28,349 nt of DNA from Candidatus Iainarchaeum sp. (lineage in GTDB: Archaea > Iainarchaeota > Iainarchaeia > Iainarchaeales > JAZDDZ01). Under the pieces are notes generated by a model. That model made no database searches. It was not told the DNA's origin and worked only from the letters and a program-made list of their open reading frames with translations. Shown here one piece after another: positions 2,232 to 7,324 of this stretch. The stretch spans positions 1 to 28,349 of the forward strand of contig JAZDDZ010000029.1 in the NCBI GenBank assembly GCA_043809245.1, read 5' to 3'. The stretch's first letter is position 1, and the number at the start of each line of letters is the position of its first letter. The position numbers and the translations under genes were made by a program.

Positions 2232-2753
2232 TTATTTCTCCCCGTTCCTCTGCATTGCGTTGATTCCCGTGCGACTGACCTCTTTTACGCCGAATTTCTG
2301 CATTAATTCCAGGAAACTGTCAATTTTTTGGGGGCTGCCCACGATTTCAATGATAACGGAATCATCGTCCACATTCAGGGCATTTGCCTTGTGGAGCGCG
2401 CAGTAATTCACTATGTCCTGTCTTTTCTCCGCGTCAACAGCCGAAACCTTCAAAAGGCAGTGCTCCCTGACAACGGAATGCTTTTCATTCAAATCAATAA
2501 CCTTAATCACGTTGATTAATTTGTTTGCCTGCTTTTCCACCTGCTCCAAAGTCCTGTCATCCCCAAAAAGGCTTATTACAATATGCGAAACCCCCGCGCG
2601 GTTCGTTTTTCCGACAACAATTGTGTCAATGTTAAAGCCCCGCCTCGCAAACAAGCCTGCGACCTTTGTGAGAACCCCTGCCCTGTCTTCAACCAGAAGG
2701 CCCACAATGTGCTTGTGCAGCGAAACCGCGCCGTCCTTTCGTTCCTCAATCAT
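2232..2753 (-). CDS. ilvH: Acetolactate synthase small (regulatory) subunit
   Basis: ACT domain 'LVEDRAGVLTKVAGLFARRGFNIDTI', 'EQVEKQANKLINVIKV', C-terminal 'KEVSRTG'. Confidence 0.95.
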   Translation of the reverse strand: MIEERKDGAVSLHKHIVGLLVEDRAGVLTKVAGLFARRGFNIDTIVVGKTNRAGVSHIVISLFGDDRTLEQVEKQANKLINVIKVIDLNEKHSVVREHCLLKVSAVDAEKRQDIVNYCALHKANALNVDDDSVIIEIVGSPQKIDSFLELMQKFGVKEVSRTGINAMQRNGEK

Positions 2754-3504
2754 TTTTGCTCCACCCCCGCCGATAGCTGATAAGCCTTATGAATTCATCA
2801 ACACCCTCAACGGGGTGTTTTCTCAGAAGCTTTCTCAAATGCAGCGGGCTGCTTGTCTCAGTCAAAAAATTAATTAAAAAATTGTTATTCCTCCCGCCAT
2901 TCAGTTCAGGGTCAGCCATTATTTTTTTGAAAATGCCCGGGGCTTCTTTTGAAATTATTTCAGTAATTAATGTTATTTTTGAGCCAACACTCCTTCGCGC
3001 GTCTTCAACAATTTTTGCTTTCGGAATTTTTAACACCCTTTTAACATATGTCGCATATGTTGGAACGCAGTCTCCTTTATGGTGGCCAAAGGATACAATT
3101 TGTGACACCTTGGAAACAGAAATATTTCTTTTCCTGACAATGCCTGCTAGTTTTTTTGACAATCCTTTGGAAGGATGCCAAGGGTCATATACATCTTCTT
3201 GCTTGACAATCACACCCCTTCTGCCTAATTTTTTTATCGCAGAATAGAGTTCATACATATATGGCGCGTGCTTTTTATAGGATTCAACGTTTGGCGCCCC
3301 ATCAAAGATTCCTACAACCATTGTGCGCGGGTCACCTTTGGCTTCCATTACTGCCTTAACAAAACCCCGCTTTTGTCTTGGGGATGCGATTCGCGAATAC
3401 CCCTGCCTTATGGCCTCAATGCCCAATATGCCAGGAGACCAATCAGGAAGAACAACCGTTACAATCTTATTAACTGATTGTTTCGGAACTTTTCTTGGCG
3501 GCAT
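2746..3504 (-). CDS. Hypothetical protein, possible highly divergent isochorismatase/cysteine-hydrolase fold
   Basis: 252-aa ORF between ilvB and ilvH; motifs VVLPD, VIVK, FGHHKGDCV, KIVEDA occur in the family order. Confidence 0.6.
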   Translation of the reverse strand: MPPRKVPKQSVNKIVTVVLPDWSPGILGIEAIRQGYSRIASPRQKRGFVKAVMEAKGDPRTMVVGIFDGAPNVESYKKHAPYMYELYSAIKKLGRRGVIVKQEDVYDPWHPSKGLSKKLAGIVRKRNISVSKVSQIVSFGHHKGDCVPTYATYVKRVLKIPKAKIVEDARRSVGSKITLITEIISKEAPGIFKKIMADPELNGGRNNNFLINFLTETSSPLHLRKLLRKHPVEGVDEFIRLISYRRGWSKND

Positions 3505-3516
3505 TTTTTTCTCACT

Positions 3517-5214
3517 TCACTTCCTGAAATAGTCCTTTGGCACGCATTCCCCGAACATTTCCGAAACGCTTGCCCCTGCAGCAAACATCGGCAGAATATT
3601 GGATTCCTCTTTTACGTGAACGTCAATTACAACTGTTTCATCGCTTTTCCTTGCGCGCAAAAAAGCCCCGCTTAGCTCCGAAGGCTTTGTAACTGTTATT
3701 CCCGTGAGCCCGTATGCTTCCGCTAGCTTTGCAAAATCCGGAACGCGCTTCAAGTGCACAGCAGAATACCTTTTCCCGTGGAACAATTCAAGCCACTGGC
3801 GCACCATTCCAAGGTATGCGTTATTCATTATCACTGCATTAACCTTGATGTTTTCTTGGCTGCATGTTGCAAGCTCCTGCATTGTCATCTGAAACGAGCC
3901 GTCCCCGTCAAAATCAAACACCTCTACCTCTGGCTTTGCGACTTTCGCGCCAATCGCTGAAGGAAGCCCAAAACCCATTGTTCCCAAGCCACCACTTGAA
4001 ATGAAAGTGCCGGGCCTTTCCCTTCGCAGGTAATGCGCTGCAAACATCTGCTGCTGCCCCACGCCAGTGGTAACAATGTCATCTGCCTTCAAAACCTTTT
4101 GCAGTTCAAGCAAAACCTTGCGCGGCTCAATTGGATTGCCCGGCAAATCCATTGCACAATCGCATTCCCTGCGCAGCTGTTTCATTTTCTCAGCCCAAGG
4201 GCGGCTCTTAACTGCCTTTGCCTTTACAACCACTGCCAGTTGCCCAAGCACATCTTTTGCGTCCCCCTGAATAGGCAAATCACAGTGCACGTTTTTCCCA
4301 ATTTCAGCTGAGTCAATGTCAATGTGAATCACTTTCACGCCCTTTGCATAGCTTGCAGTGCTTCCAGTTATCCTGTCCGAAAACCTGCATCCAATTGCAA
4401 CCAATAAATCCGCATTTACCACTGCATAATTTGCTGCCTTCAAGCCGTGCATTCCACAGACACCCATTGAAAGGGGATGCGTTTCAGGAAAACATCCTTT
4501 GCCCATGAAAGTAGTGGCAACAGGCGCGAGAATCGCTTCCGCCACATCCATCAGTTCACGCGAAGCGTTTGAAGCCAGAACTCCGCCGCCTGCAAGAATA
4601 ACAGGGTTTTGCGCCTTCAAAATCATTTCCGCTGCACGCTTTACCTGCACTGGATGCCCCTCTGTTTTTGGCTTGTATCCCTGCATCTCACTGTTTTTTT
4701 CCTCTGCGGTAACCCCTCCAACCTGAACGTCTTTTGGCAAATCAATGTAAACAGGCCCTTTTCTTCCGCTTGAGGCAATGAAGAAAGCCTTTTTTATTGT
4801 TGAGGAGATTGCATTCGGGTTCCGCAGCTGGAAATTATGCTTTGTAATCGGAATCGTTAGCCCCATCATGTCGGCTTCCTGGAAGGCGTCATTTCCAATG
4901 AGGTTTGTGGGCACCTGCCCTGCGAAAGCAACTATCGGCACTGAATCCGAAAAAGCATCAGCAATTCCCGTGATAAGGTTTGTCGCCCCTGGTCCAGAGG
5001 TTGCAACGCAAACCCCTACTTTGCCTGAAGCCCTTGCATATCCTTCGGCTGCATGCGCAGCGCACTGCTCGTGCCTAACCAGAACATGCCTTAACTGCTT
5101 GGAGTAATTCAGGAATTCATCGTAAAGCGGAATAACCGCCCCTCCGGGAAAGCCAAACACGTGCTCAACTTTCTCCGCAACCAATGCCTTTACGATTGCC
5201 TCTGCGCCCTTCAT
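3517..5214 (-). CDS. ilvB: Acetolactate synthase large subunit, biosynthetic type
   Basis: FGFPGGA, RHEQ, TSGPGATN, GNDAFQE, SGGLGTMGFG, ThDP motif GDGSFQM...NN, LGMVRQW. Confidence 0.97.
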   Translation of the reverse strand: MKGAEAIVKALVAEKVEHVFGFPGGAVIPLYDEFLNYSKQLRHVLVRHEQCAAHAAEGYARASGKVGVCVATSGPGATNLITGIADAFSDSVPIVAFAGQVPTNLIGNDAFQEADMMGLTIPITKHNFQLRNPNAISSTIKKAFFIASSGRKGPVYIDLPKDVQVGGVTAEEKNSEMQGYKPKTEGHPVQVKRAAEMILKAQNPVILAGGGVLASNASRELMDVAEAILAPVATTFMGKGCFPETHPLSMGVCGMHGLKAANYAVVNADLLVAIGCRFSDRITGSTASYAKGVKVIHIDIDSAEIGKNVHCDLPIQGDAKDVLGQLAVVVKAKAVKSRPWAEKMKQLRRECDCAMDLPGNPIEPRKVLLELQKVLKADDIVTTGVGQQQMFAAHYLRRERPGTFISSGGLGTMGFGLPSAIGAKVAKPEVEVFDFDGDGSFQMTMQELATCSQENIKVNAVIMNNAYLGMVRQWLELFHGKRYSAVHLKRVPDFAKLAEAYGLTGITVTKPSELSGAFLRARKSDETVVIDVHVKEESNILPMFAAGASVSEMFGECVPKDYFRK

Positions 5215-5227
5215 TTTTTCCCTCGCT

Positions 5228-5521
5228 TTATCTTCTCCTATGCTTTCTTATTGGCTTTTTTTTTAGGAGCCCCCTTGCTTGAACCAGTTGAATCTTGCGG
5301 TTATACCTATGCACAGTAGTAACTAGCCTGCCTGCCTGCTGCAGGATATGATTTTGGCCTTTAATGTTCCTGAGTGCAGTTAAACGCGCGTCATTCGGGT
5401 TAATGAACTTGCCCTGTTGTATACATTCATTTACATACTTTGTTGCAGCAGCAAGAGCTTTCTCCGCAGCGGCTTCTGCCCCTTGGGGGTCTTTTTTTTT
5501 CCTGCTTCCCTTTTTCGCCAT
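5228..5521 (-). CDS. Basic hypothetical protein between leuA and ilvB
   Basis: ORF fills the leuA-ilvB gap; likely start MAKKGSRKKK at 5521; Lys/Arg-rich ends. Confidence 0.65.
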   Translation of the reverse strand: MAKKGSRKKKDPQGAEAAAEKALAAATKYVNECIQQGKFINPNDARLTALRNIKGQNHILQQAGRLVTTVHRYNRKIQLVQARGLLKKKPIRKHRRR

Positions 5522-5526
5522 TTTTT

Positions 5527-7074
5527 TCACTTCGCGTTTTTCCTGTAATTCAGCACCTTGTTCGCGCCCTTAAGCAGCGCCTCAACCGAAGCCATTATCA
5601 CGTCCTCGTTCACGGATTCAGCGCTGAAGATTTTTCCGCTTTTGTCCTCAAGCTTTATCATCACATCCGCCAAAGCGTCTGTTCCCCCTGTAATCGCCTT
5701 GATGTTGTATTCCTTTAACTTAATTTCATTGCCCACAACGCTTTTAATCGCTTGGCTTGCAGCGTCAACCGGCCCCACGCCCTTGCCAAAGCCAGCGACA
5801 TCCTTTCCGTCAACCAATAGCTTGACTGTCGCTGTCGGCTTTATTTTGTTTCCAGTCAAGACAACAAGCTCATCAAGCTTTATTATCTGCTCTTCCTCGC
5901 CTAGCCTTCGCGAAACATTGAACGCAATTGCCTCAATGTCTTCCGGCAAAACTTTTTTCTGCTTGTCCGCAAGCGCCTTGATTCTGCCGATGACTTCGCT
6001 GACTTCCGCTTCAGTTAAAGCAAAGCCAAGCTCCTTTAACGCTTTTTCCGTTGCATGCTTTCCGGAATGCTTTCCAATCACAAGCCTTGTTTCCGCTCCG
6101 ACTGTTTTAGGGTTGATTATTTCATAAGTGCTGCTGCTTGCAATTATTCCCTGCTGGTGAATTCCTGCCTCGTGCGCAAAGGCGTTCTTTCCAACAATCG
6201 CCTTGTTCGGCTGAACCATTATGCCTGTGAAATCCGAAACCATTTTGCTTGAACGAAAAATTTCATCAAGCTTTATACCTGTTTTCGCTTCAAAAAAATC
6301 ACGCCTTGTATGCAGCGCCATGGCGATTTCCTCAAGCGAAGCATTTCCTGCCCTTTCCCCCAATCCATTGACTGTGCATTCAACCTGTCCCGCGCCGTTT
6401 CTCACAGCCTCAAGGGAATTCGCAACCGCCAAACCCAAATCGTTATGGCAGTGCACGCTAATAACCGCTTCCCTGATGTTCGGCACGTTTTCCCTTATCC
6501 CAGCAATCAGTTTGCCGAATTCTGCGGGCTGGGTATAGCCAACAGTGTCAGGCACGTTAATTGTTTTTGCACCAGCATCAATTACCGCTTCAAAAATTTC
6601 AAACAAAAATTTTGAATTTGTCCTGGTCGCATCCATTGCACTGAACTCCACGTCTTCACATAGTTTTCGCGCATGCTTTACTGTGCCAACCGACATCTTC
6701 AATGCCTCTTTTTCGGTTTTTTTGAACTGGTGCTTTAAATGAATTGAAGAGGTTGACATGAAAGTGTGAATGCGTGGCTTTGCAGCGCCTTTGACCGCAT
6801 TCCACGCAGCGTCAATGTCTTTCGGCAAAGCCCTTGCAAGCGCCGCTACCCTTGTGCCTTTCACTGTTTCGCTTATCTCTTTAACTGCACGGAAATCATC
6901 CTCCGACGCAATTGGAAAACCTGCTTCGATGACATCTACCTTTAATTTCTCCAGCTGCGCCGCGATTTTGAGCTTTTCTTCGTGCGTTAGCGTTGCTCCC
7001 GGGCTCTGTTCTCCGTCCCTCAGCGTAGTGTCAAAAACCATTATTTTCCTGAATTTTCCCGCTTTTTTCGCCAA
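5527..7074 (-). CDS. leuA: 2-isopropylmalate synthase (LeuA/CimA family) with C-terminal regulatory domain
   Basis: [50 protein letters not shown]; TTG start with SD AGGTGA at 7079-7084. Confidence 0.92.
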
Positions 7075-7122
7075 TTTTTCACCTTTCTCTTCTTCACGTT
7101 TTTTCTCTTTTTTTTGCTTTAA

Positions 7123-7180
7123 CGACTTCTGGTTTTTTTGTTTTCGCCGCCCCAGAAGCCGAAATTTTTTTGGGTGCGGC
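7123..7180 (-). promoter_or_regulatory. Structured leuA leader RNA (alternative helices / H-type pseudoknot)
   Basis: GCCGC(7180-7176) pairs with GCGGC(7150-7146); CGGCUUCUGG(7161-7152) pairs with CCAGAAGUCG(7132-7123). Confidence 0.65.
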
Positions 7181-7278
7181 TATCGAAGCAGTACAACCAA
7201 AAGCAATGCAACGCTTAGGGCCTCTACGCTGAACAGCATTGAGAGAATTCCCCTTTTCTTCGCCTTCGGTTTCTGCAT
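7180..7278 (-). CDS. Putative leu/ilv operon leader peptide MQKPKAKKRGILSMLFSVEALSVALLLVVLLR*
   Basis: 32 codons with 8 Leu, 4 Val and 1 Ile, including an LLLVVLL run just before UAG; lies between a BRE/TATA and leuA. Confidence 0.65.
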   Translation of the reverse strand: MQKPKAKKRGILSMLFSVEALSVALLLVVLLR

Positions 7279-7309
7279 AAAAACTACTATCAATTATTGC
7301 CCTCAAGAG

Positions 7310-7324
7310 TTTAAATAGTTTTCC
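7310..7324 (-). promoter_or_regulatory. BRE-TATA promoter of the leader/leuA operon (possibly bidirectional)
   Basis: Minus strand reads GGAAAAC-TATTTAAA about 32 nt before the leader ATG; plus strand reads TTTAAATA before ORF 7350. Confidence 0.55.

Follow-up and report, generated by a model that had tools for sequence, protein, structure and literature searches.

A candidate leucine- and valine-sensing leader peptide ahead of the leuA-ilvB-ilvN operon of a small-genome archaeon

Leader-peptide attenuation is a textbook bacterial mechanism. The bacterial leu and ilv attenuators, which include leuL, ivbL and ilvL of E. coli and the Leu leader family of Rfam, have a short open reading frame (ORF) with a run of end-product codons directly upstream of the operon, followed by alternative helices, and the run consists of Leu alone for leu-only operons and of Leu plus Val for operons that include ilvB. 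A like arrangement recurs on the minus strand of contig JAZDDZ010000029.1 of Candidatus Iainarchaeum sp. (assembly GCA_043809245.1), a stretch of 28,349 nucleotides (nt) called the window below, where a short ORF ending in Leu and Val codons precedes leuA, the first gene of a leuA-ilvB-ilvN operon. This leader differs from its bacterial counterparts in its archaeal promoter and nearly leaderless mRNA, in a codon run placed at the very end of the ORF with a hairpin abutting the stop codon, and in the near absence of Ile codons. The trait by which an attenuator is recognised, an upstream short ORF rich in codons for the operon's own end products, is present, whereas an intrinsic terminator of hairpin and U-run, the OFF structure of the bacterial systems, is absent from the window. 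A search of Rfam, proposed for its leu/ilv leader families in a preliminary description of the locus and taking in leader, T-box and riboswitch families, gave no match at gathering score in the window, and at E ≤ 10 only one chance match, on the opposite strand, between positions 6900 and 7450. Because the defining terminator is missing and no Rfam family matches, the locus is not filed among the bacterial leu/ilv leader families. The leader is probably a sensor in which the ribosome reads the charging of tRNA-Leu and tRNA-Val and thereby controls the leuA-ilvB-ilvN operon.

Several other systems share parts of this anatomy. Translational attenuation of erm and cat genes is alike in that a ribosome stalled in a short leader ORF remodels the hairpin immediately downstream; there, however, the signal is a drug together with the nascent peptide, not tRNA charging, and the hairpin holds the Shine-Dalgarno (SD) sequence of the regulated gene, which is not so for leuA here. 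The nearest described anatomy is that of the actinobacterial LEU element, in which a Leu-run upstream ORF and a conserved pseudoknot or alternative hairpin, without a terminator, precede leuA (Seliverstov et al. 2005, PMC1262725, in the portion of the article available); the same order of parts is found here, with the pseudoknot limited to one structural class of relatives (class A, below). According to that portion, its authors favoured a protein-binding site and cited Leu-codon mutations that left regulation unchanged. The base stem of the LEU element encloses a pseudoknot and joins the Leu run to the leuA SD, whereas in the archaeal loci the duplex between run and SD has a mean z score of -0.05, and the pairing partner of the run is the 5' half of the ORF that contains it. 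The LEU element is bacterial and the window archaeal, and the two are set apart by anatomy and not by a homology model. In mycobacteria, leaderless polycysteine short ORFs carry a Cys tract that pairs with the SD of the next gene, and control is translational (Canestrari et al., bioRxiv 10.1101/834739); as far as the available part of the preprint describes them, they resemble the present leader in being leaderless, in having control codons at the 3' end and biosynthesis genes to match, and in lacking an intrinsic terminator, and differ in that neither the run of the leuA leader nor the segment after its stop is complementary to the SD beyond chance. The ilvBNC operon of Corynebacterium glutamicum likewise has a leader peptide translated without a ribosome-binding site ahead of branched-chain genes, but it is bacterial and, in the accessible part of the account, is explained by a three-hairpin terminator/antiterminator model (PMC11857589). 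A literature search, judged mainly from titles and the beginnings of abstracts, found no report of leader-peptide attenuation in Archaea.

The coordinates of all features are given in Table 1. The promoter carries a TFB recognition element (BRE) and TATA-like box, the 3' end of which lies about 32 nt upstream of the leader ATG, and for this reason the 5' untranslated region is predicted to be 10 nt or shorter, making the mRNA almost leaderless. Of 45 related loci, 34 have a TATA-like 8-mer that starts 28–48 nt ahead of the leader ATG. Leu, Val and Ile account for 13 of the 32 leader codons, and five different Leu codons are used (CTC, CTG, CTA, TTG and CTT). Direct reading of the minus strand bears out what the preliminary description had said of the promoter, the ORF and its codons, including the seven consecutive Leu/Val codons near the stop; the frame is present in the list of ORFs as well, where it starts at an upstream TTG (7293). 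When 13,348 ATG-initiated ORFs of 10–60 codons in the host genome were ranked by the Leu/Val score of their tails, the leader tied with one other ORF for the top score, and it alone of the two is followed by a strong hairpin after the stop (-11.2 versus -0.7 kcal/mol).

Conservation was assessed in 215 genomes of the phylum, 196 of which belong to the order of the window. A LeuA orthologue (E ≤ 1e-90) is encoded in 49 of the 196 and in none of the remaining 19. A leader was scored as an ATG-initiated ORF of at most 70 codons, located no more than 500 nt upstream, in which the last 12 residues reach a score of at least 12 (2L+I+V); it is present at 45 of the 49 leuA loci of the order. At a 46th locus (G004), ilvE lies directly ahead of leuA and the leader, which ends in SLSLLNLLLLK, is upstream of ilvE. 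The three loci without a leader are L009, L043 and L044, two of which are short LeuA-like genes in other contexts. A C-terminal LeuA fragment (G122:C200) was not part of the locus set, and L065, with only 159 nt of upstream sequence, was left unjudged. In a control set of 80 LeuA loci from outside the order, mostly bacterial, such an ORF occurs at four, two of them in small-genome archaea and two in Deltaproteobacteria. A second phylum of small-genome archaea (genomes of 0.7–2.1 Mb) was chosen because one of its genomes had given one of the archaeal matches in the control set. A LeuA orthologue was found in 10 of its 301 sampled members, one of these ten was not used, and in all 8 leuA loci that were fetched a Leu-run ORF lies 80–183 nt upstream; L064 has such a leader too. 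Loss of the upstream ORF in relatives had been named as an outcome that would speak against a leader; the opposite was found, at 46 of 49 leuA loci of the order and in a second phylum. The N-termini of the leaders are unrelated between families, the ORF ends with the run, and 36 of the 45 leaders terminate with TAA.

An observation on the bacterial side is that L110 and L120 (Desulfobaccales / Deltaproteobacteria records) have ORFs upstream of leuA that end in LALLLLLPA and LRLLPA, respectively. The archaeal leaders L036 and L037, both of class A, share the LPA ending with these two, which may reflect either convergence or a shared origin.

The composition of the run points to the amino acids that are sensed. 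In the last ten residues of the 45 leaders (450 residues), L makes up 62%, V 16%, A 10%, I 1.6% and F 0%, while the corresponding shares among the hydrophobic residues of long ORFs in the host genome are L 25, V 17, I 17 and F 14%, and the leaders outside their tails contain 5.5% F and 7% I. All six Leu codons occur across the tails, and within class alignments the changes in the run are mostly synonymous (CTG/TTG, CTA/TTA, GTA/GTG). Judged from these sequences, the conserved signal is codon identity rather than hydrophobicity. The preliminary description had allowed that the peptide might be a fragment of a pilin or membrane-protein gene. That alternative was tested and fails: the N-termini are unconserved, the ORF stops right after the run, and the tails have no Phe and almost no Ile. 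A class III signal peptide followed by a mature domain, as in archaeal type IV pilin-like proteins, was not found, and a KKRG-I motif is present in the window only.

Val content, in turn, follows the content of the operon. The comparison took 38 loci, namely those with a leader and either an ilvB match or at least 2.5 kb of downstream sequence, with operon genes identified by Pfam and mapped across loci by tblastn. The presence of two or more Val among the last 12 residues agrees with the presence of ilvB downstream in all 38: the 22 loci with ilvB have at least two Val, and the 16 with leuA only, leuA-leuBCD or leuA-ilvE have none or one. The same contrast is seen within a single genus (G151 and G140 versus six others) and within a single family (G094). 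Two predictions were made from it and confirmed when more DNA was fetched: ilvB was expected beside the two Val-containing leaders of a genus that otherwise has Leu only, and was expected to be missing beside a Val-free leader from an ilvB-rich family. On the LeuA tree the Val trait and the ilvB trait each change six times, and the two agree in every independent pair, of which there are three on supported branches and six when all branches are counted. We regard it as very probable that the leader ORF senses the supply of Leu and Val.

The RNA that follows the stop codon can fold in more than one way. The core of helix S1 pairs GCCGC (7180-7176) with GCGGC (7150-7146) and can be extended, past a bulged A7175, by CCCA (7174-7171) with UGGG (7154-7151). 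Helix S2 pairs CGGCUUCUGG (7161-7152) with CCAGAAGUCG (7132-7123) over 10 bp, one of them G-U. The order of the arms gives S1 and S2 an H-type pseudoknot topology, and extended S1 overlaps S2 by three bases (7154-7152), the two being iso-energetic in the window (-15.6 versus -15.3 kcal/mol). A third helix would join GCUUUUGGUU (7204-7195), within the control codons, to AACCAGAAGU (7134-7125) over 10 bp with two G-U pairs. These helices, the topology and the competition between S1 and S2 are all in the sequence as they were first described. The third helix, proposed as a further exclusive state, did not hold up outside the window, with a z score of -2.73 there and a mean of -0.11 over 17 loci of classes A and B. 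The minimum free energy (MFE) fold contains another helix, H0, that had not been described before: in the window G7276-G7273 and A7271-A7260, from the purine-rich start of the ORF, pair with 7206-7188, and across the 45 loci the pairing of the ORF 5' half with the run has a mean energy of -14.8 kcal/mol and a mean z score of -1.35 (30 of 45 below -1).

Among relatives, it is the hairpin at the stop codon that is kept. A hairpin starting -2 to +4 nt from the stop with an MFE of -9 kcal/mol or lower is found at 38 of the 45 loci, where 18.2 are expected from shuffled sequences; the mean z score is -1.55, and 17 of 45 fall below -2. Its arms vary by family, for example GCACUCC/GGAGUGC, GCACUUCC/GGAAGUGC, GUGCCCUCU/AGAGGGC and GGCAAGAGG/CCUUUUGCC, with others besides. 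The loci were sorted into structural classes, of which A consists of the window and one family (13 loci), the others being B, B2, C, D and single loci. In class A the arms of S1 and both arms of S2 align cleanly, S1 being 81% paired (alignment A1) and S2 85%; for the two helices together 83.6% of alignment cells are paired, compared with 41–55% when the partners are slid. The energies of S1 and S2 lie within about 1–5 kcal/mol of each other across the 13 loci, and in most members S2 extends into the G-run of the S1 3' arm. The motif AGAAGUCNUUA is kept in classes A and B, and class B has no stable alternative to S1. As a regulon motif AGAAGUCNUUA was rejected, with three matches genome-wide and only one of them at a leader, and reading of the alignment over it revealed neither a second promoter nor a small ORF or stop codon that is conserved. 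The expectation that leader helices would be conserved is therefore borne out for the stop hairpin, which is retained with differing sequences, and not for S2 and the pseudoknot, which are kept in class A only. A pattern scan of metagenomes anchored on S2 returned 23 stretches and no new covariation: two were true leaders (near-copies of L034 and L035), 18 were contigs of an unrelated soil repeat family and three were chance-like. The soil contigs (L219, L221-L232, L234-L238) are near-identical, with tandem repeats that read LLEPDFWV in one frame, and are unrelated to the leader.

From the anatomy, the conservation and the amino-acid specificity described so far, we infer a scheme of stalling, folding order and output. 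Transcription from the archaeal promoter would yield an almost leaderless mRNA in which the first 32 codons end in the Leu/Val run. When no ribosome is present, the control run would be held in H0 by the purine-rich beginning of the ORF. Downstream of the stop, the RNA could adopt either S1, which is compatible with the core of S2 in an H-type pseudoknot, or extended S2, which uses part of the S1 3' arm. With Leu or Val in short supply, the ribosome would dwell in the run, 3–10 codons before the stop, so that S1 forms first and S2 stacks on it. With both plentiful, it would reach the UAG, its footprint would cover the S1 5' arm, and only extended S2 could form. The S1/pseudoknot fold is taken as permissive, and regulation would act on what becomes of the transcript within the untranslated spacer of 105 nt, through premature termination that probably depends on a factor. 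That the position of the ribosome sets the choice between S1 and S2 is probable on the basis of modelled folding, with the model scoring 41 of the 45 loci (L054, L057, L058 and L060 have no anchored S1 and were left out). The modelled probability of S1 is 0.43 in ribosome-free RNA, 0.42–0.44 with the A site 8–10 codons before the stop, 0.60–0.73 at 4–6 codons, 0.23 at 2 codons and 0 at the stop. S1 was taken as the starvation fold and the permissive one because most stall positions in a long run leave it free, and, if the ribosome does set the choice, we lean slightly towards this sign. An output at transcription, rather than at translation or RNA stability, is a tentative assignment. As a whole, the earlier proposal of a Leu/Val leader-peptide attenuator gains support from the retention of the ORF, from codons that track the operon and from the conserved stop hairpin, and its output would be as just outlined.

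A number of points weigh against this scheme or parts of it. Start codons and transcription start sites are assumed from the sequence, and translation of the leader is itself a prediction. The modelled footprint, -15 to +12 around the A site, was taken from bacteria, and RNAfold (ViennaRNA) was used without pseudoknot scoring, so that the energy of the S1 + S2 pseudoknot is not included. Taken by itself, the fold of the window does not exceed chance: the first 65 nt past the stop reach -15.6 kcal/mol (z -1.50), with 17 of 200 shuffled sequences as stable, and the whole 231-nt leader has a z score of 0.00. Support for the structure therefore rests on the relatives. Covariation there is slight, with only two pairs in class A changing on both sides and shuffles reaching as many, so that of the comparison proposed at the outset the conserved Leu/Val runs were found (46 of 49 loci) and the covariation largely was not. 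The other structural classes have S1 and lack S2, and the pseudoknot thus cannot be the general mechanism. For the Val/ilvB association, a sign test on the three independent pairs gives p = 0.25 only and cannot reach significance because there are so few of them; related loci are not independent, and p-values are accordingly overstated. From 7179 to 7075 the window nowhere has four or more consecutive U, which agrees with the initial remark that the element is not a bacterial intrinsic terminator, and a run of that length within 15 nt after S1 is found at 23 of the 45 loci against a background of 21%, at 2 of the 13 class A loci and not in the window. Read in the bacterial manner, S1 with a U-run is a terminator, which gives a sign opposite to the one favoured here, S1 being likeliest, in the model, when the ribosome is stalled. 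The favoured sign holds only if an archaeal hairpin beside a U-rich stretch protects against termination, which is not established.

The alternative that survives best, although it is unlikely, keeps the same sensor and makes S1 the OFF element: a ribosome starved on the last Leu/Val codons, or one waiting at the stop, would hold the S1 5' arm single-stranded while S2 locks the 3' arm, and with ample tRNA the ribosome would leave fast and S1 would form, halting RNA polymerase or blocking downstream events. The tight geometry favours it, with the run ending 1–2 codons before the stop and S1 starting -2 to +4 nt from it, as do the U-runs that follow S1 at 23 of the 45 loci. The Cys leader that this genome also has (below) ends its run directly at the stop, and a G-run 10 nt ahead of the cysE ATG forms the 3' arm of its hairpin, and for that reason only this alternative gives the right sign there. 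The ribosome, however, would reach S1 only with its A site on the last one or two control codons, and runs of 8–10 codons would hold starved ribosomes too far upstream, where modelled S1 is at its ribosome-free level (8–10 codons) or higher than that (4–6 codons). The last codon is usually neither Leu nor Val, the window and 11 of 13 class A loci lack a U-run after S1, and archaeal polymerase is not known to depend on hairpins in order to terminate.

Control of translation has somewhat less in its favour and is doubtful. Here RNA beside the leader would mask the leuA SD and start unless the ribosome stalls, and a candidate in the window is the S1 5' arm, with GCCG/CACC facing GGUG (7083-7080) and UGGC (7073-7070). 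In the MFE fold of the ribosome-free 231-nt leader, the bases 7180-7173 indeed pair with both the SD and the start codon and so enclose S2, and the modelled accessibility of the SD in the window rises from 0.67 in free RNA to 0.80–0.86 with a ribosome late in the run. At L008 (class D) the S1 3' arm complements the SD, and accessibility rises from 0.11–0.15 to 0.30–0.36 on stalling; in L201 the 9 nt after the stop of a Cys leader are the exact complement of the cysK SD; and the mycobacterial polycysteine leaders work in this way, according to the part of the preprint available (10.1101/834739). Over the 45 loci, in contrast, constrained folding with the ribosome placed at the stop or along the run did not consistently alter leuA SD accessibility, which is higher in the stalled than in the stop state at 13 loci and lower at 6, with flat class means. 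The duplex of the post-stop segment with the SD region has a mean z score of -0.14 (p = 0.35), and that of the run with the SD, as noted above, is no stronger. The spacers, 90–270 nt long, are rich in purines and show little conservation, and every modelled state leaves the SD mostly open.

It is improbable that the ORF is incidental or secondary, the conserved element being a structured RNA to which a protein or another factor binds, or that its product is a small membrane peptide with a separate function. The actinobacterial LEU element offers a precedent, since a protein-binding site was favoured for a Leu-run upstream ORF and pseudoknot before leuA in the available portion of that article (PMC1262725); the motif AGAAGUCNUUA is conserved in sequence beyond what pairing alone would ask, and the C-termini of the peptides are hydrophobic. 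Yet families that all keep the ORF, its run and its position have wholly different structures after the stop, Val content tracks ilvB at 38 of 38 loci, Phe is absent and Ile almost absent from the 450 tail residues, the N-termini are unconserved and the frame of the leader relative to leuA varies, and no comparable setting elsewhere in the genome contains AGAAGUCNUUA. Read-through of the leader stop to give an N-terminally extended LeuA, as suggested by the frame open from 7293 to 5527 except for the single TAG (7182-7180), with leader and leuA in frame and a pseudoknot topology directly 3' of the stop, where a pseudoknot can favour read-through, is very improbable and was rejected, given that relatives have the leader in any of the three frames (L002 in frame 1; L003, L004 and L005 in frame 2), which makes the in-frame arrangement of the window a coincidence, that spacers hold stops, that 36 of 45 leaders end with TAA and that a hydrophobic LeuA extension is without precedent among the 49 orthologues.

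Genes for TFB, a Hef helicase-nuclease and a RuBisCO large subunit show the window to be archaeal; the host is uncultured, and its genome is 1.48 Mb in size and those of its relatives 0.5–1.5 Mb. The genes from leuA to ilvN/H (5527-7074 and 2232-5530) lie on one strand with short gaps only and are probably co-transcribed. They include two ORFs, one of them Lys/Arg-rich and situated between leuA and ilvB (orf100), the other between ilvB and ilvN (orf252); leuA, ilvB and ilvN are contiguous in the relatives examined, and the two ORFs look like lineage-specific insertions into the operon. For leuA, the TTG at 7074 is the likely start, since relatives carry GGUG or GGAGG 5–10 nt ahead of their predicted starts; an alternative ATG lies at 7041. 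The other branched-chain genes of the host genome, namely a cimA-like gene (C22), ilvC (C17), a leuC-like gene (C34) and ilvE in the window, have no leader by eye in the 600 nt upstream. A second LeuA-like gene (C22:951-2450; L018/L194) is 32–33% identical, has no run-type leader in the 600 nt upstream and is probably a citramalate-synthase-type paralogue.

Table 1. Features of the leader region and operon in the window (all on the minus strand)
Feature	Coordinates	Strand	Remarks and basis
BRE/TATA-like promoter element, GGAAAACTATTTAAA (GGAAAAC TATTTAAA)	7310..7324	-	Read from the sequence
Leader ORF, 32 codons and TAG, MQKPKAKKRGILSMLFSVEALSVALLLVVLLR	7180..7278 (ATG 7278, TAG 7182-7180)	-	Direct reading
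Helix H0, 5' strand; purine-rich ORF start (G CAG .. AACCGAAGGCGA)	7260..7276	-	Pairs with control run 7206-7188; MFE fold
Control run LLLVVLL, codons 25-31, followed by one Arg codon and the stop	7186..7206	-	Sequence
S1 5' arm, GCCGC A CCCA	7171..7180	-	Begins at the G of the stop codon
S2 5' arm, CGGCUUCUGG	7152..7161	-	Inside the S1 loop
S1 3' arm, UGGG GCGGC	7146..7154	-	7154-7152 common to S2
S2 3' arm with conserved motif (C)CAGAAGUCGUUA	7120..7132	-	
Purine-rich, almost pyrimidine-free spacer without U-run	7085..7119	-	Class A spacers also purine-rich
Likely leuA ribosome-binding site AGGUGA (7084-7079) and TTG start (7074-7072)	7072..7084	-	
leuA (2-isopropylmalate synthase), first gene of the operon	5527..7074	-	Pfam HMGL-like, HCS_D2, LeuA_dimer
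orf100, part of the operon	5228..5530	-	100 aa, without Pfam family
ilvB	3517..5214	-	Pfam
orf252	2746..3504	-	252 aa, without Pfam family
ilvN/H	2232..2753	-	Pfam

The leuA leader is not alone in its genome. A genome-wide scan found a poly-Cys leader outside the window (C4:39213-39266, plus strand, corresponding to L195:1398-1451), encoding MSAQNNKACNCCCCCCC before its stop, with a TATA-like box upstream and a hairpin directly after the stop codon. The 3' arm of this hairpin is the G-run located 10 nt ahead of the ATG of a serine acetyltransferase (cysE-like) gene. Two relatives, L199 and L201, have homologous leaders (MSGQNNKKKCTCNCCCCCCC, then stop) ahead of cysK-cysE, and there the 9 nt that follow the stop match the cysK SD as its exact complement. 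In total, a Cys leader is present at 3 of 24 cysE loci of the order, within the 1.5 kb that were fetched. The one ahead of cysE in the host genome is the direct counterpart of the mycobacterial polycysteine short ORFs, as these are described in the accessible part of their report (10.1101/834739). The presence of a poly-Cys leader before cysE suggests a wider strategy, in which sensing by leader ORFs would be a broader habit of the lineage, with an output that may differ between operons.

Two further groups of run-type ORFs were seen. At C27:15170-15305 (plus strand, outside the window), two tandem ORFs encode Met followed by 16 Asn and Met followed by 12 Asn, each preceded by a GGAGGTG ribosome-binding site; flanked by an unknown gene on one side and an unknown 130-aa ORF on the other, they could be Asn-sensing leaders or a repeat peptide. 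In family f11 (L149, L150, L151, L152-L155 and other loci), LeuA-like genes of about 380–405 aa have Leu-run leaders and lack the allosteric LeuA_dimer domain (L151 has HMGL-like and HCS_D2 only), and leader control may replace feedback inhibition in this family.

With Leu/Val leaders in at least two phyla and Cys leaders before cysE and cysK, it is possible, if on the unlikely side, that small-genome archaea of the DPANN type use ribosome-mediated attenuation generally, on a platform in which the position of the first ribosome takes the place of a hairpin-plus-U terminator. The position of that ribosome on a leaderless ORF would then decide whether RNA polymerase is released in the spacer, for example by FttA/aCPSF1 or at short U-runs. 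If this is true, it would be the first regulatory use of transcription-translation coupling in Archaea. Should the leuA leader itself act as inferred above, archaeal cells would link tRNA charging to gene expression through the ribosome, as bacteria do. It would also provide a natural and compact test case of RNA structure and translation acting on a eukaryote-like polymerase without bacterial terminators. For genome annotation, a rule for regulatory ORFs of DPANN archaea would follow, namely a C-terminal run of one or two amino acids, a stop codon and a hairpin, and the composition of a leader set against the content of its operon could help to predict pathway output in uncultured archaea.

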